Assembly (NCBI GenBank): GCA_041395385.1
Contig: JAWLAN010000009.1
Span: forward strand, 110,431-174,430
Length of the DNA: 64,000 nt
Direction of reading: 5' to 3'
From: Gammaproteobacteria bacterium
GTDB lineage: Bacteria > Pseudomonadota > Gammaproteobacteria > JAJPIJ01
Shown: in pieces, positions 16,723 through 37,715 of the stretch
Position numbering within the stretch: the first letter of the stretch is position 1
How the letters are laid out: every line of letters begins with the position of its first letter
Position numbers and translations under genes: made by a program
The notes under the pieces: model-generated
Database searches by the model: none
Seen by the model: only the letters and a program-made list of their open reading frames with translations
What the model was told of the DNA's origin: nothing

Positions 16723-17154
16723 ATGTTCGTGCACGACAGGGATGCTGCCCGGCGCATGTTCGTCGAGGCCTGGCGCAAGCGCCAGGCCGGGGAGGTGCTG
16801 GAACCGATCGAGGCCCTGATCGCCGATGTCGTCGCCCTGCACCCGGAGTACCAGGGGCTGCTGACCTCCGGGGAGGCGTCGGTCGCGCAGGAGTACACCC
16901 CCGAGCACGGCGTGGCCAACCCCTTCCTGCACATGGGCATGCATATTGCGTTGCGCGAGCAGGTGAGCACCGACCGGCCCGCCGGCATCGCCGGCCTCTA
17001 CCGGCGGGCGGTCGAGCGGCGCGGCGACCCGCATGCCGTGGAGCATGACATGATGGAATGCCTGGGCGAGGCCCTGTGGCGGGCGCAGCGCGACAACGCG
17101 GTGCCCGACGAAGCCGCCTACATGGAGTGCCTGAACCGACGATTGTCGCGATGA
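16723..17154 (+). CDS. DUF1841 family protein
   Basis: 143 aa with the DUF1841 pattern (MFVHDRDAARRMFVEAWRKRQAGEVLEPIEALIADVVALHPEY...). Confidence 0.7.
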   Translation: MFVHDRDAARRMFVEAWRKRQAGEVLEPIEALIADVVALHPEYQGLLTSGEASVAQEYTPEHGVANPFLHMGMHIALREQVSTDRPAGIAGLYRRAVERRGDPHAVEHDMMECLGEALWRAQRDNAVPDEAAYMECLNRRLSR

Positions 17155-18434
17155 ATCTCCCCGTCGATCCCGACCGGACCGTGCCGCGCCAGGAGCGTGC
17201 CATCGAGCGGCAGGTGCGCGTGCTGGCCGAGGCCATACAGGAGTTCGCCACGTCGCTGAACCTGCAGGAGACGCTGCGCAGCGCCATCGCGACCTTCATC
17301 GAACAGATGAACGCCGATGCCGGTTCGATCTTCCTGCTCGAGAGCGACAATACCGAGCTGGTCTGCCAACAGTGCGCCGGTCCGGTGGACATCACCGGGC
17401 TGCGCATTCCCGCGGGCGAGGGCATTGTCGGGCGCACGGTGGCGGAGCGCCGCACGCAGATCGTCCGCAACGCGCAGGACGAATCGCAGTTCAACCCCGC
17501 CATAGACGCCGGCACCGGCTTTCTCACCCGCTCGATACTCTGCGCGCCGCTGGTCGTGCGCGGGCAGAGCATCGGCGCGCTGGAGCTCATCAACAAACGC
17601 ACCGCCGACGGCCAGTTCGAGGAGGAGGACAGGCACCTGGCGACCGCGCTCGCCTCGGCGGCGGCGCTCGCCATCCACAACGCCCGGATGGTTGCAAGGC
17701 TGGTCGACCAGGAGCGCGTGCGCAAGGAGCTGGAGCTGGTGCGCGAGGTGCAGGTAAACCTGCTGCCCAGCCCGACGCACCTGGAGCAGCTTCCGGTCGT
17801 CGCCATCAACATACCGGCGCGGGAGGTCTCGGGCGACTTCTACGACTATTTCGCGCTGGGGAGCTCTCGGGTCTACTTCAACATCGCCGACGTGTCCGGC
17901 AAGGGCATGAACACCGCGCTGTGGATGGCGAAGACGACCGGCCTGCTGCACTGCCTGGCCAAGACCACCGACGATCTCGGCCGTCTGCTCAGCCGCGTCA
18001 ACCAGGAGCTCTGCGAGACCTCCTCGCACGGGATGTTCGTCACCGTGGTCACCGGCTTCATCGACCTGCAGCGCGACGAGATCGTGCTGGCCAACGCCGG
18101 CCATCTGCCGGCGATGTATCGCGGTTCCGACGGCGTGTTCCGCGAGCTGCCCGCGGACGGGCCGCCGCTCGGCGTGGTGCCCGAGGCCGAGTTTCGCTGT
18201 ACCCGCTTCCCGCTCGCCGGCGGCAGCCTGTACATTTACACGGACGGCGTGACCGAATCGCCGGACGACCGCGGTCAGATCCTCGGCGCTGCCGGGCTCC
18301 GGGAGCTCATCGATTCGGTGGCTTCGTTGGCTCCGCGTGCCCGCCTCGAGGGGATGGTGGCGACCCTGCGCCGCAGGGGCCATCGCCAGCGCGACGACAT
18401 TACGCTGATGCTGATTGAACGGGACCTTCGATGA
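17151..18434 (+). CDS. GAF domain-containing PP2C (SpoIIE/RsbU-like) serine phosphatase
   Basis: Start at MNLPVDP, overlapping the DUF1841 stop (ATGA). N-terminal GAF domain; C-terminal PPM motifs (REVSGDFYDY; ADVSGKGMNTA; TDGVTES). Confidence 0.75.
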   Translation: MNLPVDPDRTVPRQERAIERQVRVLAEAIQEFATSLNLQETLRSAIATFIEQMNADAGSIFLLESDNTELVCQQCAGPVDITGLRIPAGEGIVGRTVAERRTQIVRNAQDESQFNPAIDAGTGFLTRSILCAPLVVRGQSIGALELINKRTADGQFEEEDRHLATALASAAALAIHNARMVARLVDQERVRKELELVREVQVNLLPSPTHLEQLPVVAINIPAREVSGDFYDYFALGSSRVYFNIADVSGKGMNTALWMAKTTGLLHCLAKTTDDLGRLLSRVNQELCETSSHGMFVTVVTGFIDLQRDEIVLANAGHLPAMYRGSDGVFRELPADGPPLGVVPEAEFRCTRFPLAGGSLYIYTDGVTESPDDRGQILGAAGLRELIDSVASLAPRARLEGMVATLRRRGHRQRDDITLMLIERDLR

Positions 18435-18847
18435 CCGGACAGCGCCTCCTGAAGGTCAAGTTCCCGGCCGACCCGCGCATACTGCGCAAGGTGCGCGAGC
18501 ACGTGCGCGAGGCCTGCGAGCGCGGCGGCTGCTGCGAGCAGGTCGTCAGCCAGATCGTGCTCGCCGTCAACGAGGCCTGCAGCAACATCATTCGCCACGC
18601 CTACAAGGGCAGCGGCGCAGGTGAAATCATCCTCGAAATCTTCAATAATGGCCGGGAACTGGAGTTTCATCTGCGGGACTTCGCCGAGCCCGTGGATCTC
18701 ACCTCGATAGGTCCGCGCGATCCGCGCGAGATTAAGCCCGGTGGTCTTGGAACGCTGTTTATCCGTGAGATCATGGATGAGTGCGCTTATGGTCACGTGC
18801 AGGGCAAGGCCGGGAATTTCCTGCACATGAAGAAGCGCATCGCCTGA
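18431..18847 (+). CDS. RsbW/SpoIIAB-like anti-sigma factor serine kinase (HATPase_c)
   Basis: 138 aa with N-box (VLAVNEACSNIIRHAY) and G-box (GGLGTLFIREIMDE). Start overlaps the phosphatase stop. Confidence 0.7.
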   Translation: MTGQRLLKVKFPADPRILRKVREHVREACERGGCCEQVVSQIVLAVNEACSNIIRHAYKGSGAGEIILEIFNNGRELEFHLRDFAEPVDLTSIGPRDPREIKPGGLGTLFIREIMDECAYGHVQGKAGNFLHMKKRIA

Positions 18848-18896
18848 TGGCGGCAGGCAGGTCATTTCCGGCTGAGTGCGGCGGGAGAGCGTTGAG

Positions 18897-19229
18897 ATGA
18901 GCTATGCGGTGCGCGATGACAGTGGCTATGCGGTCGTTGAGCTGACCGGCGACGTGGACTTGTCCGCCTCGCCGGAGGCGCGCTCCGCCATACTCGGCTG
19001 CCTGGCGCAGGCGCGAAACGTCCTGGTGGATCTGTCTCGCGTCACCTACATAGACAGCTCCGGCGTGGCGAGCCTGGTCGAGGGCTACCAGACGGCGAAG
19101 AAGAAAAAGCTGCGGTTCGGCCTGATCGGCGTGAGCGAGGCCGCGCTGAGCGTGCTGAAGCTGGCGCGTCTGGACAAGGTCTTTCCCATCCATGCGACGA
19201 TCAACGAACGCATCCGGGCGGATGGCTGA
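18897..19229 (+). CDS. STAS domain anti-sigma-factor antagonist (RsbV/SpoIIAA-like)
   Basis: MSYAVRDDSGYAVVELTGDVDLSAS...VTYIDSSGVASLVEG carries the phosphorylatable DSSG motif. gggagag SD 8 nt upstream of the ATG at 18897. Confidence 0.7.
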   Translation: MSYAVRDDSGYAVVELTGDVDLSASPEARSAILGCLAQARNVLVDLSRVTYIDSSGVASLVEGYQTAKKKKLRFGLIGVSEAALSVLKLARLDKVFPIHATINERIRADG

Positions 19230-20034
19230 CGCGGCCGGGCAATCCTCGGCGGTCCCCATCGAGCACCTCGGACGGGCCGCGGTCGCCGCCGTCGAGGAGT
19301 TCGGCTACTACTTCCTGCTCTGGCTCGAGAGCCTGTACTGGCTGCTGTTCGGCTGGATGAAGAAGCAGCCGGTTCGAATCTCGGCGATGGCCGCGCAGAT
19401 GGTGACCATCGGCATCGCCGCCACGCCCATCGTCACCATCCTCGCGTTCACCATCGGCGTGATGCTCGCCATCCAGGGCATCGCGACGCTGGAGACCTTC
19501 GGCGCCGAGGAGCAGGTCGTGATGGGCATCGCGCTGTCGGTCACGCGCGAGTTCGCCGCACTGATCACCGCGATCGTGGTCGCCGGCCGCTCCGGTTCGG
19601 CGCTCGCCGCGCGCATCGGCACCATGCAGGTCTCCCAGGAGATCGATGCGCTGCGGGTCATGAGCATCAACCCGGTCCGCTACCTCGCCGCTCCGGTGCT
19701 CGCGGCCATGATGGTGATGGTGCCGGCGCTGACCCTCATCGCCGACTTCGCCGCCCTGCTCGGCGGGGCGGTGTTCACCAATCTCGAGCTGGGCCTGTCT
19801 TACTCCGCCTACCTCGACCGCACGCTGAGCTCGCTGGTTTTCGATGACGTGCGGCAGGGGCTGATAAAGAGCCTGGTCTTCGCCACGATCATCACGGTGA
19901 TCGGGGTGAGCAACGGCTTCCAGGTCACCGGCGGTGCCGAGGGGGTCGGGCGCGCCACCACGCGCGCGGTGGTGTTGTCGATCTCCTATATCGTGGTGGC
20001 GGACATGTTGTTCACCTACTTCCTGAACCGCTGA
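19222..20034 (+). CDS. MlaE-family ABC transporter permease
   Basis: About 270 aa permease with the MlaE/YrbE topology. Start ATG overlaps the STAS stop by 8 nt. Confidence 0.75.
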   Translation: MADAAGQSSAVPIEHLGRAAVAAVEEFGYYFLLWLESLYWLLFGWMKKQPVRISAMAAQMVTIGIAATPIVTILAFTIGVMLAIQGIATLETFGAEEQVVMGIALSVTREFAALITAIVVAGRSGSALAARIGTMQVSQEIDALRVMSINPVRYLAAPVLAAMMVMVPALTLIADFAALLGGAVFTNLELGLSYSAYLDRTLSSLVFDDVRQGLIKSLVFATIITVIGVSNGFQVTGGAEGVGRATTRAVVLSISYIVVADMLFTYFLNR

Positions 20035-20040
20035 GTCGCC

Positions 20041-20841
20041 GTGACCCGGACCGAGACCCAGCCCGTCATCGAGGTCAGCGCGCTGACCGCCCATTACGGT
20101 TCGCGCAAGATCCTCGAGGGCATCGACTTCCACGTCGAGCCCGGGGAGATCCGCATCATCATGGGGGGCAGCGGCTCGGGCAAGAGCACGCTGCTGCGCC
20201 ATCTGCTCGGGCTCAACCTGCCCACCAGCGGCAGGGTCCGACTCCTCGGCGTCGACGTCGCCGGCGCCTCCGCCACGGAGCTGCACGAGCTGCGCAGGAA
20301 TATCGGCGTGGCCTTCCAGGGCGGGGCACTGTTCAGCTCGATGACCGTCGGCGAGAACATCAAGCTGCCGCTGCGGGAGCACGCGCGCCTCGACGAGACC
20401 ACCATGGACATCATGGTGCGCCTGAAGCTCGAGGTGGTGAACCTCGCCGGCTTCGAGCACCTGATGCCCGCGCAGCTCTCCGGCGGCATGATCAAGCGCG
20501 CCGCCGTGGCCAGGGCGGTCATCATGGACCCGAAATTGCTGTTCTTCGACGAACCCTCCGCCGGCCTGGATCCGGTCGTCTCGGCGGAGCTCGACGAGAT
20601 GATCCTGCGGCTGCGCGAGGCGATGAACATGAGCATCGTCGTGGTGACCCACGAGCTGGAGAGCGCCTTCAAGATCGCCGATCGCATCACCGTGCTCGAC
20701 CACGGCCGCATCCTCATGACCGGCACCGTCGCGGAGGTCCAGAGCTGCCCGCATCCGCGGGTCCAGGACCTGCTCAACCGCAGACCGCGCCGCTCGGAGG
20801 TCAACGCGGAGGACTACCTGCGGCGACTGACCGGCGGCTGA
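20041..20841 (+). CDS. ABC transporter ATP-binding protein (MlaF-like)
   Basis: Walker A GGSGSGKST, signature LSGGMIKR, Walker B LLFFDEPSAGLD. GTG start 6 nt after the permease stop. Confidence 0.8.
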   Translation: MTRTETQPVIEVSALTAHYGSRKILEGIDFHVEPGEIRIIMGGSGSGKSTLLRHLLGLNLPTSGRVRLLGVDVAGASATELHELRRNIGVAFQGGALFSSMTVGENIKLPLREHARLDETTMDIMVRLKLEVVNLAGFEHLMPAQLSGGMIKRAAVARAVIMDPKLLFFDEPSAGLDPVVSAELDEMILRLREAMNMSIVVVTHELESAFKIADRITVLDHGRILMTGTVAEVQSCPHPRVQDLLNRRPRRSEVNAEDYLRRLTGG

Positions 20842-20920: not shown

Positions 20921-21946
20921 ATGCGGCGCGACAACATCAATTACCTGGCGGTGGGCGTGTTCGTCCTGGCCGTCGGCGTGGCGTTCCTGTGGGTGCTATA
21001 CCGGCTCACCGGCAGCACCGGACCGACGGATCGCTACTACGCCATATTCGACAGCGTCGGCGGCATCAAGTACGGGACCGTGACCTACTACAAGGGCTAT
21101 CCCGTCGGCCAGGTCGAGTCGGTGCAGCCCGTGGTCACCGACAGCAGGGTCAATTATCGCGTCGAGTTCAGCGTCACCAAGGACTGGAAGATGCCGGTCG
21201 GGAGCGCCGCGGCCATCATGCTGCCGGGCCCCCTGGCGCCGGCGGTGATCGACATCCACGAGGGCAAAGGACCGGGCTGGATGAAGCCCGGCGATGAGCT
21301 CGACGGTGTGGAGCAGGCGGACATGTTCTCCGCGCTCAACGAGGCGGCGGCGGAATTCAAGAAGCTCACCAGCGAGGGACAGCCGCTGCTGCAGAGTCTC
21401 AACGACCGGATCACCGCGCTGAGCATCGAGTACGAGTCGCTGTCGAAGGAGCAGCTGCGGCCGCTGCTCGCCAGCCTGCGCCAGCGGGTGGACGATCCGG
21501 AGCTGTTCGACGAGCTCAAGAAGGTGGTCAAGAAGCTCGACGCCAGCGCCGAGGCGCTGCTGCAGACCGTCAACGCCGAGAACCGTCAGCATATCTCCTC
21601 CATCCTGACCAACGCCGACAAGGGTTCGGCGCAGCTGACCGAGCTGATGGGCCGCATAGAGGAGTCCCGCAAGCAGATGCACGAGCTGTTTCTCGCCATG
21701 GACGCGCTGGTCAGGGAGAACAGGGAGGGTATCAACCGGACCGTGGGCGACGCCTCGGTCACGATGCGGGAATTGCGCGGCAGCATCGAGGTGGTGGCAG
21801 ACAACATCGATGCGATCGTGCATTATCTGGAAGGCAGCGGCCGCAACATGCAGGAGTTCAGCCGCGAGGTGCGCGAGAACCCGAGCGTGCTCTTCCGCGG
21901 CGAGTCGACGCAGGACCCGCTGCCGGCCGGGAATAACAACAATTGA
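20921..21946 (+). CDS. MlaD/MCE domain protein
   Basis: N-terminal TM helix (NYLAVGVFVLAVGVAFLWVLY), then an MCE domain and a long coiled-coil tail. gggggaaagg SD. Confidence 0.7.
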   Translation: MRRDNINYLAVGVFVLAVGVAFLWVLYRLTGSTGPTDRYYAIFDSVGGIKYGTVTYYKGYPVGQVESVQPVVTDSRVNYRVEFSVTKDWKMPVGSAAAIMLPGPLAPAVIDIHEGKGPGWMKPGDELDGVEQADMFSALNEAAAEFKKLTSEGQPLLQSLNDRITALSIEYESLSKEQLRPLLASLRQRVDDPELFDELKKVVKKLDASAEALLQTVNAENRQHISSILTNADKGSAQLTELMGRIEESRKQMHELFLAMDALVRENREGINRTVGDASVTMRELRGSIEVVADNIDAIVHYLEGSGRNMQEFSREVRENPSVLFRGESTQDPLPAGNNNN

Positions 21947-21954
21947 GGAACTGG

Positions 21955-22587
21955 ATGATCGCTTCCGCACGGGCCATCTTGCCCATGCTGCTGGTGGCCG
22001 GAATGCTCGGCGGCTGCGGGCGCGGCGCGCCGATCCCCACCGACACGTACTATCGCCTGGCGGCGCCGCATATCGACGCCGAAGCCGGAGCGCCGCTCGC
22101 CGACGGCGGCATACTCGTGGAGGCATTCGAGGCCGATGCCCTTTACCGGGAGCGGCCGCTGCTTTTCAGCGAGGACGCGGCCAACCTGACGCTGAAGCAG
22201 TACCATCATCACCATTGGCAGGAATCCCCGCCGCGGCTGCTACGCGAGCAGCTCGTCCTGTACCTGCGCGCCGCCCACGCCGCGCCGTGGGTTGCCGGCC
22301 GCGCCGATCAGGCGCCGGCGATGGTCGTACGCGGACGCATCCGGCGCTTCGAGCACATCATCGGCGCGGATGCGGTGACCGCGCGTGTCGCCCTGGAGCT
22401 GCAACTGCGGGGGCAGGACGGAGAGATGCTGATGCTGCGCGACTATCAGCGTGACGAGCCGGCCGCGGGCAAGGACGTGGCCAGCGTGGTGGCGGCGACG
22501 GACGCCGCCCTGAACTCGGTGTTCGAGCAGTTTCTCGCCGACGCGCGCGCCGCCGTGCGCGCGCCCGCGACCGGCCGGTTGCCGTGA
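21955..22587 (+). CDS. ABC-type transport auxiliary lipoprotein (PqiC/DUF330-like)
   Basis: Lipobox LGGCG followed by the TDTYYRL motif typical of PqiC-family lipoproteins of Mce systems. gaggaa SD; 8 nt after the mlaD-like stop. Confidence 0.6.
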   Translation: MIASARAILPMLLVAGMLGGCGRGAPIPTDTYYRLAAPHIDAEAGAPLADGGILVEAFEADALYRERPLLFSEDAANLTLKQYHHHHWQESPPRLLREQLVLYLRAAHAAPWVAGRADQAPAMVVRGRIRRFEHIIGADAVTARVALELQLRGQDGEMLMLRDYQRDEPAAGKDVASVVAATDAALNSVFEQFLADARAAVRAPATGRLP

Positions 22588-24836
22588 AGGAATTCCTCGC
22601 CAAGTTCAGGCGGCACCGCGTGCGCATCATCGCGAGCCTCGCCACGCTCGCCATATTCCTGCTGCACGCGCGCGACGAGGAGGGCGGCCGCTTCCGCTGG
22701 GGCCTGATCGACAAGCTGGAGCACGTCGCCTACGACGCCCGCCTCGCTCTCAGCATGCCGCGCACGGTGGACCCGCGCATCGTCATCATCGACATCGACG
22801 AGAAGAGCCTCGCCGTGGAGGGGCGGTGGCCATGGCCGCGACAGCGGATCGCGGCGATGCTCGAGCAGCTGTTCGAGAAATACCGGGCGCGGCTGGTCGC
22901 CTTCGACGTGGTCTTCGCGGAGCCGGACCAGAGCTCCGGACTGCACGTGCTGGAGGGCCTCGCCGAAGGGGAGCTCAAGACCGTGCCGGAGTTCGGACAG
23001 ACCCTTGCCCGCCTGCGGCCGTCGCTGGACGGCGATGCCGTGCTTGCCGAGACGATGAAGAAGTACCCGGTGGTGCTCGGCTACTTCTTCAACGAGGCCA
23101 ATCCGGCGCGCTCCGGCGCCCTGCCGCCGCCGACCTTCGTGAAGGGCAGCTTCCCCGGCAAGCGCGTCGACTTCCTGAAGGCGGTGGGCTACGGCGGCAA
23201 TCTCGAACAACTGGTGAAGGTTGCCGCGGGAGCCGGGCACTTCAACCCCTCGCTCGACGTCGACGGGGTGGTCCGGCGGGTGCCGATGGTGTTCTCCTTC
23301 GAGGATGCGCAGTACGAGGCGCTCTCGCTCGCGGTCGCGCGGCAGTATCTCGCGGTGAAGGAGGTGCGGGCGGAGTTCGAGCCGGTGCCCGCGATGGCGC
23401 GGCGCAATTATTCGGGGCTGGAGTGGTTGCAGGTCGGCAAGGGGCGCATACCGGTCGACGAGTATGTGCAGGCGCTGGTGCCCTACCGTGGCGCGCAGGG
23501 CAGCTTTCCGTACGTCTCGGCCACCGACGTCATCACCGGCAAGGCCGATCCCGGCGTGCTGAAGGAGGGCGTGATCGTGCTGGTCGGAACGACCGCCGCG
23601 GGTCTGCTGGACATGCGGACCACGCCGGTGCAGCGCGCCTATCCCGGCGTGGAGATCCACGCGAACCTGGTCGCCGGCATACTCGACGGGAAGCTCATGC
23701 AGCGACCCGCCTACGTGCGCGGGCTGGAGTTCATCCTGCTGCTGCTGTTCGGAATCGTGTTCGCCCTGGCGCTGCCGGCGCTCAGCCCCCTGGCGGCCAC
23801 GCTCACGGCCGCCGGCATGCTGGCCGCCTACGTCGGCCTGAACCTGGTGTTCTGGCAGGTCGGCAAGATGGTCGTGCCGGTCGCCACCGGCATCTTCACC
23901 ATGCTGGCCATGTTCCTGTTGAACATGTCGTACGGCTACTTCATCGAGACGCGCGGCAAGCGCCAGCTGACGAGCCTCTTCGGACAGTACGTGCCGCCGG
24001 AGCTCGTCGACGAAATGGCCCGCGATCCGGAGAAATATTCGCTGGAGGCGGAATCCCGCGAGATGACGGTGCTGTTCTCCGACGTCCGCGGCTTCACCTC
24101 GATCTCCGAGGGGCTCGAGCCGAGGCAGCTCTCGGAGCTCATGAACCAGCTGCTCACGCCCATGACGCAGGTGATCCATCTGCAGCGCGGCACGATCGAC
24201 AAGTACATGGGCGACGCGATCATGGCCTTCTGGGGGGCCCCCGTGCCCGACCCCAACCACGCCGCCAACGCCGTCACCGCGGCGCTGCAGATGATGGCCA
24301 AGCTCGGGGAGATCAACGCCTCGTTCCGGCAGCGGCGCTGGCCGGAGATCCACATCGGCGTGGGCATCAACACCGGGACGATGAACGTCGGCAACATGGG
24401 CTCGGAGTTCCGCATGGCGTACACCGTGCTCGGCGACGCGGTGAACCTGGGGTCGCGCCTGGAAGGCCTGACCAAGGGCTACGGCGTGGGCATCATCGTC
24501 AGCGAGAGCACCGCAAAGGGTGCGCCGCAGTTCGCCTATCGCGAGCTGGACGTGGTGCGGGTGAAGGGCAAGGACAGGCCGGTGGCCATCTACGAGCCGC
24601 TGGGACCCCTCAGCAGCATGGACGCGCGCATGCGCGATGAGATCAAGCTGTATCGCCAGGCGCTGAAATACTACCGCGCGCAGGAATGGGACATGGCCGA
24701 GCTGCAGTTTCTCAACCTGGCGAAGTCCTCCTCCTCGCCGCAGCTGTACTCGATGTACGCGGAGCGGGTGGCGCACTTCCGTCGCGAGCCGCCGCCGGCC
24801 AACTGGGACGGCGTCTTCACCCACACCAGCAAGTAG
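22584..24836 (+). CDS. CHASE2 sensor domain-containing class III adenylate/guanylate cyclase
   Basis: N-terminal CHASE2 (RWPWPRQRIAAML...), TM helices, C-terminal CYCc (MTVLFSDVRGFTSISEGL...GDAIMAFWGAP). GTG start overlaps the lipoprotein stop (GTGA). Confidence 0.8.
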   Translation: MKEFLAKFRRHRVRIIASLATLAIFLLHARDEEGGRFRWGLIDKLEHVAYDARLALSMPRTVDPRIVIIDIDEKSLAVEGRWPWPRQRIAAMLEQLFEKYRARLVAFDVVFAEPDQSSGLHVLEGLAEGELKTVPEFGQTLARLRPSLDGDAVLAETMKKYPVVLGYFFNEANPARSGALPPPTFVKGSFPGKRVDFLKAVGYGGNLEQLVKVAAGAGHFNPSLDVDGVVRRVPMVFSFEDAQYEALSLAVARQYLAVKEVRAEFEPVPAMARRNYSGLEWLQVGKGRIPVDEYVQALVPYRGAQGSFPYVSATDVITGKADPGVLKEGVIVLVGTTAAGLLDMRTTPVQRAYPGVEIHANLVAGILDGKLMQRPAYVRGLEFILLLLFGIVFALALPALSPLAATLTAAGMLAAYVGLNLVFWQVGKMVVPVATGIFTMLAMFLLNMSYGYFIETRGKRQLTSLFGQYVPPELVDEMARDPEKYSLEAESREMTVLFSDVRGFTSISEGLEPRQLSELMNQLLTPMTQVIHLQRGTIDKYMGDAIMAFWGAPVPDPNHAANAVTAALQMMAKLGEINASFRQRRWPEIHIGVGINTGTMNVGNMGSEFRMAYTVLGDAVNLGSRLEGLTKGYGVGIIVSESTAKGAPQFAYRELDVVRVKGKDRPVAIYEPLGPLSSMDARMRDEIKLYRQALKYYRAQEWDMAELQFLNLAKSSSSPQLYSMYAERVAHFRREPPPANWDGVFTHTSK

Positions 24837-24945: not shown

Positions 24946-25683
24946 TCAGCGCGTCAGGGTGAACTCCATCTTGATGCCGGCCAGCTCCACGATGTCGCCG
25001 TTGCCCAGGCCGTAGGCCTGCGGACCGATCGGATTGCCGTTGACGATGGGGTAGTTGGTGCCGCCGCCGTCGCTCTCGATGTGGGTCAGGAAATAGCCCT
25101 GAGGCCGGCGGGAGATGACGGCAACCTGCACCCCCGGCTTGCCGAGCGTGATGAGCGCCTTGGTGAGTTCGAGTTCCCGGCCGGCGATGGGGCCGTTCAG
25201 CACGCGCAGCTTGCCGAGCGGCATGCCGGAGCTCGCGACCGCGGGCGCCACGCTCTCGCTCAGGTTGGGCGGGCGTTGCGGGTGCGCCGGCGCGACCCCG
25301 GCGGCAGCGGCGGCCTGCACGCTGGCCGCGGCGGCGCTGGCCGTGCCCGGGCGGATGATCATGGTCTTCTCGAAGTCCTCGTCATGCGCCGTGGCATGCT
25401 CGTTGACGTACTTCAGCTCGTGCTTGCCGATGGCGATTACGTCGCCGTCGCGCAGCGCGTGCTTCTTGATCAGCTTGCCGTTGACGTAGGTCCCGTTGGT
25501 GCTGCCCAGGTCTTCCAGGAAGGAGTCGTCGAGGATGGTGATGATGAGGGCGTGCTTGCCGCTGACAGCGAGATTGTCGATCTGGATGTCGTTGTCAGGC
25601 TTACGGCCTATCGTCGTCCGTTCCTTGGTGAGCGTGAATTCGCGCTGGACGGCACCGTTCAAACTGAGGATCAATTTAGCCAT
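24946..25683 (-). CDS. FHA domain-containing protein (two FHA domains, Ala-rich linker)
   Basis: N-terminal FHA (TIGRKPDNDIQIDNLAVSGKHA...GSTNGTYVNG) and a second C-terminal FHA-like domain. Confidence 0.75.
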   Translation of the reverse strand: MAKLILSLNGAVQREFTLTKERTTIGRKPDNDIQIDNLAVSGKHALIITILDDSFLEDLGSTNGTYVNGKLIKKHALRDGDVIAIGKHELKYVNEHATAHDEDFEKTMIIRPGTASAAAASVQAAAAAGVAPAHPQRPPNLSESVAPAVASSGMPLGKLRVLNGPIAGRELELTKALITLGKPGVQVAVISRRPQGYFLTHIESDGGGTNYPIVNGNPIGPQAYGLGNGDIVELAGIKMEFTLTR

Positions 25684-25697
25684 AGGCCCCTATCCCG

Positions 25698-26531
25698 TTA
25701 TCGCCCTTTCTTTATCCGACCCAAGACATTGTTATACCAGCTCGTTTTGGCCGGAAAGGCACTCAAGACACGTGCCAAGATCACGGACACGTTGTCCTTC
25801 CCCCCGTTCGCATTGGCGATGCGAACCAGTTCGCTACCCGCTTTTTCAAGATTAGCACTAAATTTTCTGAGGGTTAAGCGAATATCTTCATCAGACATCA
25901 TATCATTTAACCCATCCGAGCAAAGCAGGTAGACGTCCCCCGGCAGGGCCGGCTCCTCCTTGATGTCCACCTCGACGTTCTCCTCCACGCCCAGGGCGCG
26001 CGTAACGAGGTTCTTCGGGGTGTTGGCCAGCGCCTCTTCCTTTGTCAAAAATCCCCTTGTAACAAGCTCTTGCACCAGGGAATGGTCGCTCGTGACCTGC
26101 TCGAACAGCTCTCCGCGCAGGCGATAAAGCCGGGAATCGCCGACGTGTGCAACGCAAAAACGGTTGTCGTAGAAGAGCACCGCCAGGGCCGTGGTCCCCA
26201 TCCCGTTGCACTGCGATTCGGTATTGGCGGTCTTGTAGATGTGGAGGTTGGCGTCGCGGATGGCCTTGCGCAGCAGGCTCGCGCCGTGGCTCAGCCCGGT
26301 CTCGGCGTCCGGTGCGTAGGCCGGCCGTATGGCCAGGCCCTGCTTGACCTGGTTCACCGTGACGCTCACGGCAATGGCGCTGGCGACCTCGCCGGCCTTG
26401 TAGCCGCCCATGCCGTCGGCCACCATCGCGAAGCCCAGGGCGGTGTCGGTGGCGGTGCTGTCCTCGTTGCGCGTGCGCTTCTGGCCGGGATCCGAGAAAT
26501 TCGCCATCTGCAGCACGCTTGCCAAGCTCAT
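25698..26531 (-). CDS. PP2C-family Ser/Thr protein phosphatase (Stp-like)
   Basis: PPM motifs (RTRNEDS; MVADGMGG; CSDGL). ggggagag SD upstream of the ATG at 26531, 13 nt after the kinase stop. Confidence 0.8.
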   Translation of the reverse strand: MSLASVLQMANFSDPGQKRTRNEDSTATDTALGFAMVADGMGGYKAGEVASAIAVSVTVNQVKQGLAIRPAYAPDAETGLSHGASLLRKAIRDANLHIYKTANTESQCNGMGTTALAVLFYDNRFCVAHVGDSRLYRLRGELFEQVTSDHSLVQELVTRGFLTKEEALANTPKNLVTRALGVEENVEVDIKEEPALPGDVYLLCSDGLNDMMSDEDIRLTLRKFSANLEKAGSELVRIANANGGKDNVSVILARVLSAFPAKTSWYNNVLGRIKKGR

Positions 26532-26544
26532 CTTCTCTCCCCGG

Positions 26545-29091
26545 TCACGAGCTCTTCCTCTGCGCGCAGGCCTGCAGATCGCGCGCGAACTCCCCGCCGG
26601 TCTGATAGCGCTTGGCCAGGTCTTTCTCGAGGGCCTTGTTGATGACGGTCTGCAGGCACGGCTTGGTACGGGCCAGCTCCGGGCGCGCCTCCAGGATGTC
26701 GGTGTGCGGCTCGTTGGCGATCTTGTACATCAGCGTGGCCATGGAGTCGCCGCGGAACGGCAGGCGGCCGCAGAGCAGCTGGTAGAACGTCACCCCGAGC
26801 GAGAACAGGTCGGAGCGGCCGTCGATCTTGCGGCCGGCGAGCTGCTCCGGGGACATGTAGGAGGGGGTGCCGAGCACCATGCCGGTCTTGGTCTTGCTCG
26901 AATCGGTGATGCGCGCGATGCCGAAGTCCGTCAGCTTGATGGCCTTGGCCTGCGGGTCGTACATGATGTTCGCCGGCTTGATGTCGCGGTGCACGACGTG
27001 CTGCCCGTGCGCATAATCCAGTGCCAGCGCCGACTTGTAGATGATGCCCATCACCAGCGGCACCGGCAGCAGCGCGTCCTCCTTGGTGTAGCGGGTGAGG
27101 TCGTGGCCGGTGAGAAACTCCATGGCGATGTAGGCCAGATCGTGCTCCTCGCCGGCATCGTAGATGGTGACGATGTTCGGGTGCTGCAGGCGGCCCGCGG
27201 TCTCGGCCTCGCGGAAGAATCGCTGCTTCACCTCGTCGAGCTCGTCGGCGTCGAACTCCTGGGAGAGCGCCAGGGTCTTGATGGCCACCACGCGGTTGAT
27301 CTTCGGGTCGCGCCCCAGGTAGACGATGCCCATGGCGCCCTTGCCGAGCTCCTTCTCGACCTGGTAGCGGCCGAGCATCGGCTTCTGCAGCGAGCCGTCC
27401 TCCAGCAGCAGCGTTCCGCCCGGGTGCGGGTTGGCGCCGCCCAGGAGGATGGTGTCCTCCATCTGCTTGGAGCGCGTCATGCGCGTCTCCAGATCGCGGA
27501 ACTTCGGATCGTGGCCCGACATGTACTGGTAGACGGAGTAGGCCTTGGCGAACTGCCGCTTGCGCTCGAAGTCCAGCGCCAGGTTGTAAAGCGGGTCCAT
27601 CATCGAGTCCTCGAGCGGGCACTTGCGGAACTTCTCGAACGCCATGTCGTACTGGCCCTGCTGCTGGAACGCCAGACCGAGCATGCGATTGCTCTCCGCG
27701 GATTCGGTGTCGGCCTTGAGCTTGCCGCGCTCGGTCACCAGGAAGCGCTTGGTGGTCAGCAGCAGGTGCCCGCATACCAGCAGCAGCGCCGCGAGCATCG
27801 TCTGCAGCCAGTTCCCGGACTTCATCGAGAAGAAGCTCAGGGCCAGCAACGCGAGCAGCGCTCCGGCGGTGGCGATCGCGGCGTGACCGGCCTTCAGGCG
27901 CGGCAGCAGATAGGCGAGATACGCGCCGACCAGCAGGAACAGCAGGATCTCCACCCAGATGGCCCAGGCCGGGACCACGAAGAAATTCTCGTTGAGGATG
28001 CTCGCCACGGAGTGCGCGAGGATCAGCACCGGCGGCATCTCCGCCACCGGCGTGTGGAAGGAGTCGCCGACGCCGAATGCGCTGGCGCCGATCAGCACCG
28101 TCTTGCCGGCGTACTTCGAAGCGGGGATCTTGCCGGAGTAGACGTCGTAGAAGGAATCCACCTGGAAGGCCGGCTCGCCGGAGGGCTTGTTCTTGTAGAA
28201 GAACGTGTTCATCCGCGAGATCTGGTCCGTGCGGATCGCGAGCTTGCCCAGGTGCACCGACTCGCCCTTCACCAGCCTGATGTCGCCGCTGCCCAGGTTG
28301 AGCGTGCGGGCCGCGATCGCCAGCGCCATGGACGGGTAGTAACGGTTGTAATAGTTCACCGCCAGCAGATCGGTGCGGATGCCGCCGTCGGCGTCCTGCC
28401 ATTGATTGACGTGGCCGATGGCGCTGGCGCGCGAGCCCAGGCCTTCGATGGGGGTGAAGATCTGGCGGGCCGGGAAGGCGTCGAATCCCTCCACGGCACC
28501 GGAGGAGACATTGGCGTCGTCGATGGCGTTCTGCTCCATGAACGCCGGCGTCGGATTGTCCGGGTTGCCCAGGGGCTCGCCCAGCTCGAAGAGGTTGGCC
28601 ATCACCACGTTGCCGGCCTTCTCGATGGCCGTGGCCAGGTTCTGATCGTAGTCCAGCTCGGTCTTTGCCGCGGCGAGCTCGGTGCCGAGCTCGACTACGG
28701 CCGCGTCGCCGCTGCCCTCCAGCCCGCGTTGCTTGTAGAGATCCAGCAGCCTGTTGATGCGCTCCAGGCCCGGGTCGGCCTGCGGTTCGGTGTACAGCAC
28801 GGTGCTGGCGATGACCTTGGCGCCCGCGGCCGCCAGCATCTCGACCATCTCCGCATGGACCTTGCGGGCCCACGGCCAGCGGCCGATGTTGCTGATGCTG
28901 CTGTCGTCGATGGCGACCACGGCGATCTGGGTGCCGGGGTCGCGCGTGGAGGTGCGCGCCCCGAAGTCGTACGCGGCGCGCTCGATCGTTTCCACCCACG
29001 CCGGACGGTTGCCCATGAGGAACAGGGCAAGAAAGAGCAGCGTGAGGGCCACCCCGGCAAACCAGTCGGTAGTCCAGAACTTCTTGCGCAT
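26545..29091 (-). CDS. CHASE2 sensor domain-containing Ser/Thr protein kinase (Hanks-type) with TPR-like linker
   Basis: N-terminal CHASE2 (GRWPWARKVHAEMV), TM region, C-terminal kinase (GKGAMGIVYLG...VAIK...HRDIKPANIMY...DFGIA...SPE). Confidence 0.85.
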   Translation of the reverse strand: MRKKFWTTDWFAGVALTLLFLALFLMGNRPAWVETIERAAYDFGARTSTRDPGTQIAVVAIDDSSISNIGRWPWARKVHAEMVEMLAAAGAKVIASTVLYTEPQADPGLERINRLLDLYKQRGLEGSGDAAVVELGTELAAAKTELDYDQNLATAIEKAGNVVMANLFELGEPLGNPDNPTPAFMEQNAIDDANVSSGAVEGFDAFPARQIFTPIEGLGSRASAIGHVNQWQDADGGIRTDLLAVNYYNRYYPSMALAIAARTLNLGSGDIRLVKGESVHLGKLAIRTDQISRMNTFFYKNKPSGEPAFQVDSFYDVYSGKIPASKYAGKTVLIGASAFGVGDSFHTPVAEMPPVLILAHSVASILNENFFVVPAWAIWVEILLFLLVGAYLAYLLPRLKAGHAAIATAGALLALLALSFFSMKSGNWLQTMLAALLLVCGHLLLTTKRFLVTERGKLKADTESAESNRMLGLAFQQQGQYDMAFEKFRKCPLEDSMMDPLYNLALDFERKRQFAKAYSVYQYMSGHDPKFRDLETRMTRSKQMEDTILLGGANPHPGGTLLLEDGSLQKPMLGRYQVEKELGKGAMGIVYLGRDPKINRVVAIKTLALSQEFDADELDEVKQRFFREAETAGRLQHPNIVTIYDAGEEHDLAYIAMEFLTGHDLTRYTKEDALLPVPLVMGIIYKSALALDYAHGQHVVHRDIKPANIMYDPQAKAIKLTDFGIARITDSSKTKTGMVLGTPSYMSPEQLAGRKIDGRSDLFSLGVTFYQLLCGRLPFRGDSMATLMYKIANEPHTDILEARPELARTKPCLQTVINKALEKDLAKRYQTGGEFARDLQACAQRKSS

Positions 29092-30340: not shown

Positions 30341-32176
30341 TCAGTAGGCCTCCGGCACCCCGCGTGCGGGAGCCGGCGCGGGCTGCGCGCCGGCGCCGCC
30401 GGCATTCTGCTCGTCCTCCTCCTGCTGCTGCAGCTCCCACATCTGGGCGTAGGTCCCCCCGCGGGCGAGCAGCTCGCGGTGGGTGCCACGCTCGATGATC
30501 CGGCCGGCCTCCATGACGAGGATCTGCCCGGCGTCGACGATGGTGGAGAGGCGATGGGCGATGACCAGCGTCGTGCGGTTCTCGGCAATCTCGCGCAGCT
30601 CGGCCTGGATGAGCTTCTCGGTGCGGGAATCCAGCGCCGAGGTGGCCTCGTCGAAGATGAGAATGGCTGGCCGCTTGAGCAGGGTTCGGGCGATGGCCAC
30701 CCTCTGTTTCTCGCCGCCGGAGAGCTTCAGTCCCCTCTCGCCGACCATGGTGTCGTAGCCATCCGGCAGGGTCATCACGAAATCGTGGATATGCGCCGAT
30801 CTCGCCGCCGCGATCACCTCATCATCGCCCGCCTCCGGGTCGCCGTAGGCGATGTTGTACCAGAGCGTGTCGTTGAAGAGCACCGTGTCCTGCGGCACGA
30901 TGCCGATCGCCCGCCGCAGCGATGCCTGCGTGACCGTGCGGATGTCCTGCCCGTCGATGCTGATGCGGCCGCCGCTGACGTCGTAGAACCGGAACAGCAG
31001 GCGCGCGAGCGTGGATTTTCCCGCTCCGCTCGCGCCGACCACGGCCACCTTGTGGCCGGCCGGGACCTCGAAGCTGACGTCGTGCAGGATCTGCCGCTTC
31101 GCCTCGTAGGAGAAATCGACGTGTTCGAAGCGTATCGACGCGCCGGCGAGCGCCAGCGGCGGCGCGCCGGGCTCGTCGTCGACCTCGCGGTGCACCTCGA
31201 GCAGGCCGAAGAGCTTCTCCATGTCGGTGACGGCCTGCTTGATCTCCCGGTACATTACCCCCAGGAAATTCAGCGGCATGTAGAGCTGGATGAGCAGGAC
31301 GTTGACCAGCACGAGATCGCCGATGCTCATGGTCCCGGCGACCACCCCGCGGGCGGCGAGCGCCATCAGCGTGGTCACCGCGCTGGCGATGATGAAGGCC
31401 TGGGTGGAATTGAGCAGCCCGAGGGAGGTGCGGCTCTTCACCGAGGCCTCCTCCCAGCGCTGCAGACTCTCGTCGTAGCGGCGGGTCTCGAAGGCTTCGT
31501 TGCCGAAGTACTTCACCGTCTCGTAATTCAGCAGGCTGTCGATGGCGCGGGTGCTCGCCTTGGAGTCCAGCTCGTTCATGGCGCGGCGGAAGTGCGTGCG
31601 CCACTCGGTTATCACCACCGTGAAAAAGATGTAGCTCGCCAGCGCGAGCAGCGTGATGAGCGCGAACCAGACGCTGAAATTGCGCAGCAGCACGATGCCG
31701 ATGAGCGTGATCTCCACGAACGTGGGGATGATGCTGAAGATGGCGTAGCTCAGCAGCGTGTCGATGCCCTTGGTGCCGCGCTCCACGTCGCGGGTCATGC
31801 CGCCGGTCTGGCGCTCCAGGTGGAAGCGCAGCGACAGCGCGTGCAGGTGGCGGAAGGTCTTCAGCGCGACGTTGCGTATGCTCCGCTGCGCGACGCGCGC
31901 AAACAGGATGTCGCGCAGCTCGCTGAACAGCGTGCTAGACAGCCGCAGCAGCCCGTATCCGGCCACCAGCGAGACCGGCACCGCCAGCAGGGCCTGGCGC
32001 GGGTCCAGGCTGTCGACGATGGCCTTGAGCGTGAGCGGCAGGCCCACGTTGGCGACCTTGGCGATGACCAGACAGCCGAGGGCCAGCAGCAGCCGGGCGC
32101 GGTACTCCCAGACGTAGGGGAGCAGCGATCTCAGCGCCGTCCAGCTGCCGGTCGGGGCGGACCCGGATGTCTTCAC
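30341..32176 (-). CDS. ABC transporter ATP-binding/permease protein (ABCB-type)
   Basis: 611 aa with six N-terminal TM helices and an NBD with Walker A GASGAGKST, signature LSGGEKQR and Walker B ILIFDEATSALD. Confidence 0.8.
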   Translation of the reverse strand: MKTSGSAPTGSWTALRSLLPYVWEYRARLLLALGCLVIAKVANVGLPLTLKAIVDSLDPRQALLAVPVSLVAGYGLLRLSSTLFSELRDILFARVAQRSIRNVALKTFRHLHALSLRFHLERQTGGMTRDVERGTKGIDTLLSYAIFSIIPTFVEITLIGIVLLRNFSVWFALITLLALASYIFFTVVITEWRTHFRRAMNELDSKASTRAIDSLLNYETVKYFGNEAFETRRYDESLQRWEEASVKSRTSLGLLNSTQAFIIASAVTTLMALAARGVVAGTMSIGDLVLVNVLLIQLYMPLNFLGVMYREIKQAVTDMEKLFGLLEVHREVDDEPGAPPLALAGASIRFEHVDFSYEAKRQILHDVSFEVPAGHKVAVVGASGAGKSTLARLLFRFYDVSGGRISIDGQDIRTVTQASLRRAIGIVPQDTVLFNDTLWYNIAYGDPEAGDDEVIAAARSAHIHDFVMTLPDGYDTMVGERGLKLSGGEKQRVAIARTLLKRPAILIFDEATSALDSRTEKLIQAELREIAENRTTLVIAHRLSTIVDAGQILVMEAGRIIERGTHRELLARGGTYAQMWELQQQEEDEQNAGGAGAQPAPAPARGVPEAY

Positions 32177-32194: not shown

Positions 32195-32686
32195 CTATTC
32201 GTCAGTCCAGTGACGAAAAGTGGCAGCCTGGCCGACGCGCCTGCCGTCGCGATCGCGCAGATCCCAGATCGTCACGTCGCGGATGCGAAAGCGCCGGCCG
32301 GTGGCGCTGACGCGCACGCCGGAGTAGCCGGTGACGTAGCCCTGCCGGCCGACCTCCTCGAGCACGCGCTGGCGCTCCTGGTGGCAAGCGGCCTCGGCGG
32401 TGTCGCGGGAAGGCGTGCGTACGAAGCGCTCCCACGGCAGCTCCCACAGGGCCAGTGCGGCGCGATTGCCGTAGTTGAGGATGGGCTCGGCGGCGGTGTC
32501 GTGCGAGGCGACCACGAACGGGGCCACGAACAGCCGCTCGGCCTCCTCGAGGGGGTCGCCGCTGCGGGCGATGAGCTCGCCGCCCGTGAGGCGGGCGTGA
32601 CTGTCGAGCAGAACCTGGGTCCAGGGGATGATGACGGTTGGATCGGGCAGATCGATGCGGCCGGAGACGGACATACAGACCGCCAT
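32195..32686 (-). CDS. MEKHLA domain-containing protein
   Basis: 163 aa with the MEKHLA pattern (...FVVASHDTAAEPILNYGNRAALALWELPWERFVRTPSR...SGRRFRIRDVTIWDL...). Confidence 0.7.
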   Translation of the reverse strand: MAVCMSVSGRIDLPDPTVIIPWTQVLLDSHARLTGGELIARSGDPLEEAERLFVAPFVVASHDTAAEPILNYGNRAALALWELPWERFVRTPSRDTAEAACHQERQRVLEEVGRQGYVTGYSGVRVSATGRRFRIRDVTIWDLRDRDGRRVGQAATFRHWTDE

Positions 32687-35794: not shown

Positions 35795-35837
35795 CTATAC
35801 GGCACCCGACCAAGCAGAAAATAGGGAGTGGTTTGGC

Positions 35838-37715
35838 ATGTCCGTCGACGTCAACAAGCAGACCCTGGGCTTCCAGGCCGAGATCCGGCAGCTGCTCGAT
35901 CTCATGGTGCATTCGCTTTACAGCAATCCCGATATCTTCCTGCGCGAGCTCATCTCCAATGCCTCGGACGCCTCCGAGAAGCTGCGCTTCGAGGCCCTGG
36001 GCAACGAGGCCCTTTACGAGGGTGACACCGATCTCGGCATCACCGTGGAGTACAGCGAGCAGCAGGGCACGATCACCGTGCGCGACAACGGCATCGGCAT
36101 GTCGCGCGAGGAGATCGTCACCAACCTCGGTTCGATCGCGAAGTCCGGCACCCGCGAGTTCTTCCAGCAGCTCACCGGCGACAAGCAGTCCGACACCCAG
36201 CTCATCGGCCAGTTCGGCGTCGGCTTCTATTCCGCCTTCATCGTCGCCGACAAGGTGACGGTGACCACCCGTCGCGCGGGGCTGCCGGCGGAGGAGGGCG
36301 TGCGCTGGGAGTCCGACGGCCAGGGCGAGTACACGGTGCAGGGCGTGCAGCGCAAGAAGCGTGGCACCGAGGTCGTCCTGCACCTGCGCGAGGAGCACAA
36401 GGAGTACCTCAGCGGCTGGAAGCTGCGGCAGATCATCCACAAGTACTCCGACCACATCACGCTGCCGATCCAGATGCCCAGGGAGGGCGAGAAGGAGACC
36501 GGCTACGAGCGGGTCAACTCGGCCACCGCGCTGTGGGTCCGCAACAAGAAAGACATCACGGAGGAGGAGTACAACGAGTTCTACAAGCACATCGCGCACG
36601 ACTTCGAGCCCCCGATGGCGCGCGTGCACACCCGGACCGAGGGCAAGCTCGAGTACACCACGCTGTTCTTCCTGCCCGCGCGCGCGCCGTTCGATCTCTG
36701 GGATCGCGAGGCCAGGCACGGCGGCATCAAGCTCTACGTGCGGCGCGTGTTCATCATGGACGACGCCGAGCAGCTCCTGCCGCGCTACCTGCGCTTCGTG
36801 CGCGGCATCGTCGACACCGCCGACCTGCCGTTGAACGTCTCGCGCGAGATCCTGCAGAAGAACAAGGTCATCGACACCATGCGCGCGGCCTCGGTGAAGA
36901 AGATCCTGGGCCTGATCGAAGGGCTCGGCGCCGAGGATTACGAGAAGTTCTGGAAGACCTTCGGCCGGGTGTTGAAGGAAGGCATCGTCGATGACACCGA
37001 CAATCGCGCGCAGATCGCCAGGCTGCTGCGTTATCCCAGCACGCACGAGGACAGCGAGGAGAAGCCGACCTCGCTCGCCGGCTACGTCTCCCGCATGACG
37101 GCCGACCACGAGGCCATCTACTTCCTCACCGCGGACAGCTTCTCCACGGCCCGCAACAGCCCGCACCTGGAGATCTTCCGCAAGAAGGGCATCGAGGTGC
37201 TGCTGCTGTGCGATCCGATCGACGAGTGGGTCGCGAGCTATCTCACGGAGTTCGAGGGCAAGCCGCTGAAGTCGGTGGCCAAGGGCGCGCTCGACCTCGG
37301 CAAGCTCGCCGACAAGGAGGAAGAGCGCAAGGAGACGCGCGAGGTCAAGGACCTGCTCGGCCGGCTGCGCAAGGCGCTGGAGACGCAGGTGTCCGACGTG
37401 CGCGCCTCCAGGCGCCTGACGAGCTCACCGGCATGCCTGGTCGCCGAGGATCACGGCATGAGCGCGAACCTCGAGCGCATCCTGAAGCAGGTCGGGCAGA
37501 AGGTGGAGAGCAGCAAGCCCATCCTGGAGATCAATGCCGAACACGCGCTGGTGCGGCGCCTGGCCGACGAGCACGACGAGCAGCGCTTCAGCGACTGGGC
37601 CCGGATCCTGTTCGACCAGGCCTTGCTCGCGGAGGGTGGAAAGCTGGAGGACCCGGCGAGTTTCGTGCGGCGGATGAACGAGATGTTCATCGCCATTGCA
37701 GCGGCGAGGACCTGA
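35838..37715 (+). CDS. htpG: molecular chaperone HtpG (Hsp90)
   Basis: Start [45 protein letters not shown] (GHKL ATPase N-terminus). agggag SD. Confidence 0.9.

Follow-up and report, generated by a model that had tools for sequence, protein, structure and literature searches.

Gene content of the locus and assignment of the STAS protein

The 64,000-nt window analysed here (contig JAWLAN010000009.1, positions 110,431 to 174,430, from a member of the Gammaproteobacteria) encodes a small STAS-domain protein that lies between two groups of genes on the same strand. Upstream are a GAF-PP2C serine phosphatase of the SpoIIE/RsbU type and an RsbW/SpoIIAB-like GHKL serine kinase, which together with the STAS protein form what is referred to below as the triad. 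Downstream is a transporter cassette in the Mpc-type order of MlaE permease, MlaF-like ATP-binding cassette (ABC) ATPase, long MlaD and PqiC-like lipoprotein, followed by a CHASE2-sensor cyclase (Table 1). Neither MlaC nor MlaA is encoded in the locus, and the gene order, with the STAS gene on the same strand as those for MlaE, MlaF and MlaD, is unlike that of mlaFEDCB. Searching the window by tblastn revealed no second Mla copy and no second STAS protein. A promoter and terminator scan returned weak promoter-like matches and no terminator-like site between 15300 and 25100, which is compatible with transcription as one unit.

The STAS open reading frame (ORF) was confirmed, with an ATG start and a Shine–Dalgarno-like GGGAGA 7 nt upstream of it. 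A longer version proposed by the ORF lister, starting at a GTG at 18876, was rejected because all STAS homologues are 110 aa long and begin M-x-Y. The product matched the Pfam families STAS (62 bits) and STAS_2 (60 bits) and scored above the cutoff of the NCBIfam anti-sigma-factor antagonist model TIGR00377 (68.1 versus 53.45 bits), whereas the MlaB equivalog model NF033618 (mlaB_1) gave 26.4 bits against a cutoff of 90, through a match limited to residues 43–95. Among solved structures, the sequence matched TM1442 (7e-11), a mycobacterial antagonist (3e-10), RsbV (2e-4) and SpoIIAA (2.5e-4), with MlaB at 0.01–0.03, and pairwise comparison with Escherichia coli MlaB gave 33% identity over 82 aa (E=2e-6). 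The AlphaFold2 (AF2) model (pLDDT 89, pTM 0.82) is complete in its SpoIIAA-type topology, with a C-terminal helix formed by residues 102–109, and the top Foldseek ranks were TM1442, RsbV, SpoIIAA and RsfB, with TM-scores of 0.82–0.88. Because TIGR00377 is passed, mlaB_1 falls far below its cutoff and the predicted fold is that of a full-length RsbV, the ORF product is, as judged by sequence and model, an RsbV/SpoIIAA-type anti-sigma antagonist and not an MlaB orthologue. The initial annotation, which had described a protein in the MlaB position retaining a phosphorylation motif, is not upheld on this point.

The motif itself, described there as a DSSG serine of the SpoIIAA/RsbV type, is genuine. 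It lies within TYIDSSGVASLVEG (residues 50–63), and the alignment with the MlaB and RsbV/SpoIIAA families that the initial annotation had proposed, made here with reference sequences first verified against their PDB entries, places Ser54 on S58 of SpoIIAA, S56 of RsbV, the serine of TM1442 (YMDSAG) and T52 of E. coli MlaB. Across a 31-member family alignment, in which members are 67–86% identical to the query, Y51, I52, D53, S54, S55 and G56 (YIDSSG) are invariant (31/31), which argues that the motif did not arise by chance. In the AF2 model the helix spanning residues 54–69 begins at Ser54, the predicted phospho-acceptor. The accompanying remark that canonical MlaB proteins lack the motif is correct in that MlaB carries VDTGG and no DSSG, but incomplete in that a hydroxyl residue, T52, occupies the aligned phospho-position.

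The cognate kinase expected immediately upstream is present, and next to it is a PP2C phosphatase that had gone unmentioned. The kinase scored 91 bits with Pfam HATPase_c_2 and 43–45 bits with the NCBIfam RsbW models, the latter under their cutoffs; it aligned with Bacillus subtilis RsbW (6m36_A, E=9e-9), and its N-box (AVNEACSNIIRHAY), G1 Asp and G2 GGLG are all retained. The phosphatase matched Pfam GAF (65 bits) and SpoIIE (142 bits), and in alignment with the PP2C domain of Pseudomonas aeruginosa RssB (3es2/3eq2) it retains SGDFYDYF, ADVSGKG, TDG and DDIT. Natural fusions link the three proteins further: kinase and STAS are joined in P0186, and phosphatase and kinase in loci L001, L091, L066 and L045. 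Given the TIGR00377 score, the invariant YIDSSG, the retained kinase boxes and PP2C metal-binding motifs, and the kinase–STAS fusion, the triad looks functional: two of its members have the motif hallmarks of active enzymes and the third has those of a phosphorylatable substrate. It would constitute a partner switch in which the GAF-PP2C phosphatase is the input arm and the kinase acts on the RsbV-type STAS protein as phospho-acceptor. On the basis of the conserved motifs, the constant co-occurrence of the genes and the natural fusion, the neighbouring kinase very probably phosphorylates Ser54, and the neighbouring PP2C very probably reverses this.

The first gene of the cassette encodes a permease without a fused STAS domain, which scored 231 bits with Pfam MlaE and 215.5 bits with TIGR00056, above its cutoff. 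The stop of the STAS gene and the start of the permease gene share 8 nt (ATGGCTGA), with a homologue-supported ATG at 19222, so that the overlap reported in the initial annotation stands; an alternative ATG at 19192 given by the ORF lister, which would lengthen the overlap to 38 nt, was set aside because homologues support the start at 19222. The MlaF-like ATPase found its best PDB matches in MlaF of Acinetobacter baumannii, P. aeruginosa and E. coli. The long MlaD protein gave 68 bits with the MCE family model TIGR00996, under the cutoff, and its orthologue in L091 showed a faint Helical_needle match.

Table 1. Features annotated around the STAS gene, with window coordinates
Feature	Coordinates	Strand	Length	Basis and remarks
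DUF1841 protein, 5' neighbour of the triad	16723..17154	+		Pfam DUF1841, 186 bits; stop overlaps phosphatase start by 4 nt
GAF-PP2C (SpoIIE/RsbU-type) serine phosphatase	17151..18434	+	427 aa	Pfam; start from homologue gene call
RsbW/SpoIIAB-like GHKL serine kinase	18431..18847	+	138 aa	Pfam, alignment; start overlaps phosphatase stop by 4 nt
STAS protein, RsbV/SpoIIAA type	18897..19229	+	110 aa	Pfam, NCBIfam, alignment, AF2 fold
Ser54 codon, predicted phospho-acceptor at N-terminus of helix alpha2	19056..19058	+		Alignment, invariance, AF2 model
MlaE-family permease, no fused STAS	19222..20034	+	270 aa	Pfam MlaE, TIGR00056
MlaF-like ABC ATPase, C-terminal extension ending EDYLRRLTGG	20041..20841	+	266 aa	PDB matches
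Long MlaD/MCE protein, MCE domain plus long helical C-terminal region	20921..21946	+	341 aa	Pfam MlaD
PqiC-like ABC_trans_aux lipoprotein, lipobox MLGGC	21955..22587	+	210 aa	Pfam ABC_trans_aux, 42.5 bits; start from homologue gene call
CHASE2-sensor class III adenylate/guanylate cyclase	22584..24836	+	750 aa	Pfam; start overlaps lipoprotein stop by 4 nt
FHA-domain protein	24946-25683	-		Convergent cluster
PP2C phosphatase	25698-26531	-		Convergent cluster
CHASE2-sensor Hanks-type Ser/Thr kinase	26545-29091	-		Convergent cluster
Fused ABC exporter (transmembrane + ATPase domains)	30341-32176	-		Side observation
MEKHLA-domain protein, directly 5' of the exporter	32195-32686	-		Side observation

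Distribution of the seven-gene module and of fused STAS–permease genes

Scanning one genome per species, we identified at least 596 genomes with a relative. The best 80 of these belong to Gammaproteobacteria (Thiohalobacter, Sulfuriflexus, Thiogranum, Thiodiazotropha, Ectothiorhodospiraceae and many metagenome-assembled genomes) and to Betaproteobacteria (Propionivibrio). Wherever upstream sequence was available in the genomic loci, phosphatase, kinase and STAS genes were adjacent on one strand, and the Mla cassette followed directly 3' of the STAS gene in 64 of 81 distinct loci. Overlap between the STAS stop and the MlaE start was found in 47 of the 58 loci in which it could be evaluated, and measured 8 nt in 32 of these. 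The association was also examined from the transporter side, by searching metagenome contigs with an MlaE alignment and taking the 80 closest relatives (57–83% identity). Among those with enough upstream DNA, STAS was encoded directly upstream in every case (73/73), and kinase (61/61) and phosphatase (49/49) were likewise always present.

The module persists at greater distances, with STAS proteins of 42–45% identity found in the same arrangement in unrelated neighbourhoods. Terasakiella sp. SH-1 (L091), a cultured alphaproteobacterium with a complete genome (CP038255.1), encodes a GAF-PP2C-kinase fusion, STAS, MlaE, MlaF, MlaD and the lipoprotein at about 373.7-384.0 kb, flanked by genes for PPK2 and a tRNA methyltransferase; a metagenomic contig (L097) carries all seven genes between unrelated ones; and kinase, STAS and MlaE are present in L096. 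OZ257136.1 and CP070733.1 are further complete genomes that bear the module. One STAS protein, at 39% identity, is an orphan. Overall, the seven-gene module occurs in each of Alpha-, Beta- and Gammaproteobacteria, where the surrounding genes are unrelated. The DUF1841 gene lies 5' of the triad in many loci and belongs to the conserved string in the sub-clade of the window only. On a short metagenomic contig (L094, 151-934), the DUF1841 gene is followed directly by a STAS gene whose product is 50% identical, with no phosphatase or kinase gene between them.

Several sequences in which the STAS domain appears joined to other proteins were also inspected. P0197, a candidate natural STAS–MlaE fusion, was rejected: after FGLVSVS it reads as a frameshifted STAS C-terminus with a garbled end, and is likely an artefact. 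In P0143 (259 aa) the STAS domain runs into a stretch resembling the middle part of the ABC_trans_aux lipoprotein, the pattern that loss of the MlaE, MlaF and MlaD genes would leave; this is probably a deletion or a chimera and was not used. In P0137, P0195, P0209 and P0215 (830–844 aa), closely related STAS domains (45–55% identity) follow a large membrane protein at its C-terminus; in P0137 and P0195, the two that were scanned, this membrane protein weakly matched TLC (ATP/ADP transporter). P0137, the one fused sequence fetched, has the motif YIDSSA. These fusions represent another transporter-linked context for the same STAS subfamily.

In Brucella abortus, the permease MpcE of the mpcEFDA operon is an MlaE with an extra N-terminal STAS domain homologous to MlaB. 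An artificial concatenate of the window STAS and MlaE proteins was searched against plasmids by tblastn, and it aligned end to end with single fused genes, in Ruegeria sp. B32 in one piece over residues 2–380. A four-gene cassette with an N-terminally extended MlaE was also found in Marinibacterium, Klebsiella variicola and Azoarcus, together with a truncated copy in Methylomagnum; MlaE-F-D-lipoprotein cassettes are accordingly intact in four of the five plasmid loci with an extended MlaE. Pfam STAS_2 scored in four of the five extended permeases and not in that of Klebsiella. The aligned motif in these permeases reads LDTGG, LDTAG, LDTVG or WDSSF, and no kinase or phosphatase is annotated near any of the five genes. 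By position, the window STAS gene occupies exactly the place of the MlaB-like domain of Mpc-type permeases, as a different kind of STAS.

A putative phosphorylation switch on the transporter and its alternatives

The occurrence of the triad and an Mla/Mpc-type transporter as a conserved unit, in many proteobacteria, is suggestive, though no proof, of a transporter that is turned on and off through serine phosphorylation of its MlaB-like subunit. In E. coli, retention of MlaF on the complex requires MlaB, T52 lies at the centre of the MlaF–MlaB interface, and the phosphomimetic T52E weakens MlaF binding (Kolich et al. 2020), which together make an MlaB-like part for the window STAS protein plausible. 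By analogy, we give about an even chance to the STAS protein being a phospho-switchable MlaB-like subunit of the adjacent lipid transporter, one that acts when unphosphorylated and is released on phosphorylation. Unphosphorylated STAS would dock through its helical face onto the MlaF ATPase and stabilise or activate it, as is the case for MlaB in E. coli MlaFEDB and is predicted for the fused STAS domain of MpcE. The kinase would phosphorylate Ser54 at the centre of the docking face, so that STAS is released and transport is shut, and the PP2C would strip the phosphate once its sensor domain is triggered. The sensor would be the GAF domain in the clade of the window, possibly bound by cAMP or cGMP from the co-operonic CHASE2 cyclase, and an HDOD domain in a sister clade. 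Stated as a whole, a partner switch with direct, non-transcriptional output on an ABC lipid transporter, in which STAS toggles between kinase and MlaF through Ser54 phosphorylation, is put forward tentatively, with a likelihood a shade below even. As part of the same proposal, and with the same reserve, trans-envelope lipid transport may be gated post-translationally by a cytoplasmic signal, namely a cyclic nucleotide monophosphate (cNMP) via GAF, or an HDOD-sensed cue in the other clade. SypA, BtrV and RbaV are precedents in which a STAS protein is itself the direct output and acts on a target other than a sigma factor.

The C-terminus of MlaF offers a possible docking element. In E. coli, an extension of ~25 aa ends in a short helix from which Y261, L265 and L266 insert into the MlaF–MlaB groove. 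The tail of the window MlaF, compared by eye, matches the E. coli DY261HADL265L at the Y and at the L four positions further on. The motif [DE]xY[LMI]x[RE]L[TA] is kept in all 58 of 58 triad-linked MlaF proteins, and Y[LM]xRLT is absent from the MlaF proteins of the fused-STAS cassettes. The likeness to the E. coli docking tail is suggestive only.

A number of observations weigh against a direct action of the STAS protein on the transporter. Both this action and the STAS–MlaF contact are drawn from gene context and analogy. By sequence and fold the protein is a full-length RsbV/SpoIIAA type with a C-terminal helix absent from MlaB, and MlaB chains appear in the Foldseek list from rank 46 down, with TM-scores of 0.58–0.67. 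BLASTP gave no match between the window STAS protein and the fused STAS domain of Ruegeria, so that the collinearity argument rests on the MlaE part and on domain order. The likeness of the MlaF tails is a short motif that MAFFT aligned otherwise, and Veillonella MlaF keeps a short extension although MlaB is absent there. The Veillonella MlaEFD system lacks a STAS protein altogether and MlaB is sparsely distributed, which indicates that STAS is not a universal need of MlaFE systems.

The cassette-less loci count on the same side. In 17 of the 81 genomic loci the triad is kept without the cassette at the locus; an example is L044, on the 2.76-Mb contig CBDEUC010000003.1. A CHASE2 cyclase gene directly follows the STAS gene in 11 of these 17, and in three others, judged from ORF sizes only, a convergent FHA/PP2C/kinase cluster comes next. 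Relaxed constraint was sought in the STAS proteins of the 17 loci and none was found, conservation being no lower. A neighbour-joining tree built from the concatenated triad is Mla-linked in every deep branch, and the 17 exceptions fall at no fewer than seven separate positions, a distribution that indicates repeated secondary loss of the cassette from the locus. Among those of the 80 closest metagenomic relatives that have enough upstream DNA, this MlaE subfamily was never seen without the triad, and the triad is sometimes seen without the transporter, an asymmetry suggesting dependence of the cassette on the triad and at least one additional role for the latter. Given its persistence at loci from which the cassette has gone, one or more additional outputs of the triad are probable.

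Such loci favour the main alternative, a conventional partner switch. Its target, a sigma factor or some other regulator held by the kinase, would be encoded elsewhere, with STAS serving solely as antagonist and the cassette co-transcribed within the same envelope-stress response. The assignment of the STAS protein to the anti-sigma antagonist family by hidden Markov model (HMM) and fold agrees with this explanation, as do its unchanged conservation in the 17 loci and the ability of MlaFE systems to function without STAS. There are also gammaproteobacterial systems with a fused PP2C-kinase and a STAS protein, CrsR/CrsA and HsbR/HsbA, that act on sigma-related targets. The initial annotation had named firm phylogenetic placement among sigma-factor antagonists, with a sigma partner elsewhere, as one outcome that would overturn it. 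Pfam scans of genes flanking the locus, and of those in the related loci that were inspected, detected no sigma factor or anti-sigma gene. A target encoded elsewhere would further leave unexplained the presence of STAS beside the MlaE subfamily in 73 of 73 cases, the stop/start overlap, the match in position with the fused STAS domains and the MlaF tail motif. We consider this explanation unlikely, though still a serious contender.

A second alternative makes the kinase the effector: the RsbW-like protein would bind and inhibit MlaF or MlaE, much as an anti-sigma factor does with its sigma factor, and dephosphorylated STAS would pull it off. This follows canonical partner-switch logic and fits both the conservation of the module and the fact that the cassette never occurs without the triad. 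However, a GHKL subunit occurs in no known Mla or MCE system, it is the STAS protein and not the kinase that is translationally coupled to MlaE and stands in the fused-domain position, and the kinase–phosphatase fusions of several loci fit a purely enzymatic role. The kinase as effector is accordingly judged improbable.

The input side of the module appears more variable than its output. An HDOD-PP2C replaces the GAF-PP2C in one deep-branching clade, to which Thiohalobacter, Thiogranum and Thiodiazotropha belong, with kinase, STAS and cassette unchanged. All seven non-GAF loci that were scanned encode an HDOD-type phosphatase (for example L054, L058, L061, L066, L082 and L085), and a joined phosphatase and kinase is found in L066 and L045. 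This exchange of sensor domains on the phosphatase, with the other components constant, yields a pattern of variable input and fixed output. The nearest solved relatives of the window GAF domain are cNMP-binding GAF domains, led by CyaB2 (1e-17) and followed by PDE2A, PDE5 and PDE10. The window cyclase (Pfam CHASE2, 203 bits; Guanylate_cyc, 81 bits) has counterparts adjoining 33 of 48 GAF-type loci and none of 12 non-GAF loci (Fisher p=1.2e-5, a value that ignores phylogeny and reflects few independent events). Because the cyclase adjoins only GAF-type triads and the GAF domain resembles those that bind cNMP, these data suggest the CHASE2 cyclase as a candidate source of the ligand for the GAF-PP2C.

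The cyclase could instead be the output of the switch, with STAS or the kinase modulating cNMP synthesis and the Mla cassette a passenger. A STAS protein that binds a nucleotide cyclase offers an analogy, the cyclase gene stands directly 3' of STAS in the 11 cassette-less loci mentioned above, and in the window it is translationally coupled to the end of the operon. Deep-branching and distant modules with both triad and cassette nevertheless lack the cyclase, and its strict association with GAF-type phosphatases fits a cyclase acting upstream of the phosphatase. Taken together, we regard an output on the cyclase as very improbable and retain the transporter as the preferred, if tentative, target of the STAS protein.

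Convergent with the operon is a minus-strand cluster (24946-29091), syntenic in related loci, that adds another signalling set based on CHASE2 beside the first. Further along the window, the genes for the MEKHLA-domain protein and the fused ABC exporter adjoin those for MutS (33134-35794) and HtpG/Hsp90 (35634-37715).

Comparison with known systems

A literature search combining partner switching (RsbW, RsbU, SpoIIE) with Mla/MCE returned no paper describing a linkage between them, and ABC or Mla systems go unmentioned in a review of STAS-only proteins. Each component is of a known kind; their combination appears undescribed. Control of MlaB by phosphorylation of T52 was proposed, not demonstrated, with the MlaFB structure, and no kinase is known (Kolich et al. 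2020). The module presents a STAS protein with its own kinase and phosphatase wired into an MCE-type transporter, in at least 596 genomes counted one per species, and with the cultured, completely sequenced Terasakiella sp. SH-1 among the carriers the question of MlaB phosphoregulation becomes directly testable. If the proposed mechanism is true, the module would be a natural example of the regulation raised by that study, the transporter would join the short list of non-sigma partner-switch outputs, and second-messenger sensing would be linked to outer-membrane lipid homeostasis.

The triad resembles the RsbU-RsbW-RsbV and SpoIIE-SpoIIAB-SpoIIAA systems of Bacillus in consisting of a PP2C phosphatase, a GHKL kinase and a single-domain STAS protein that passes TIGR00377 and has its predicted phospho-serine within DS[ST]G at the start of helix alpha2. 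It differs from them in its gene order of phosphatase, kinase and STAS, in the lack of a sigma gene in the operon or neighbourhood, in its GAF sensor (HDOD in the sister clade) and in the overlap of the STAS gene with an ABC permease gene. Non-canonical proteobacterial partner switches with the STAS protein as output are SypE/SypA of Vibrio fischeri, BtrU/W/V of Bordetella and RbaV/W of Rhodobacter, in which phosphorylation of a STAS serine toggles action on a non-sigma or unknown target; some of them have a phosphatase–kinase fusion like that of L001, L091 and L066. Those systems are, however, tied to biofilm, type III secretion and gene-transfer-agent loci, not to an MCE ABC transporter, and have other sensor domains.

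With E. coli MlaB, the window protein shares its nature as a small cytoplasmic STAS protein encoded with MlaF, MlaE and MlaD, the hydroxyl residue at the same position of helix alpha2 (T52 and S54, respectively), and a partner MlaF whose C-terminal extension ends in a Y...L motif. Unlike MlaB, the fold of which is a minimal STAS without the fifth strand and last helix, it has an extra C-terminal helix and fails the MlaB equivalog model, and it is accompanied by a kinase and a phosphatase of its own, partners not described for any MlaB. The genes are also placed differently: the E. coli operon runs mlaF-E-D-C-B, so that mlaB is its last gene, following mlaC and not beside mlaE, whereas the window STAS gene precedes mlaE. 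The MlaB position assigned in the initial annotation thus fails for mlaFEDCB, but holds for Mpc-type operons, where STAS is the N-terminal domain of the permease.

The nearest counterpart in arrangement is the Mla-Pqi chimeric system MpcEFDA of Brucella, with which the window cassette is collinear. Both have a long MlaD (341 aa in the window; 331 aa, with a needle-like extension, in Brucella MpcD), and the lipoprotein of the window stands in the position of MpcA, which is PqiC-like. The STAS domain of Mpc-type systems is fused to the permease, whereas in the window it is encoded by a separate gene in another reading frame; and where the fused domains of the plasmid-borne and Mpc-type permeases carry an LDT[GAV]G-type motif and lack a nearby kinase or phosphatase, the window protein carries YIDSSG together with a dedicated kinase and phosphatase.

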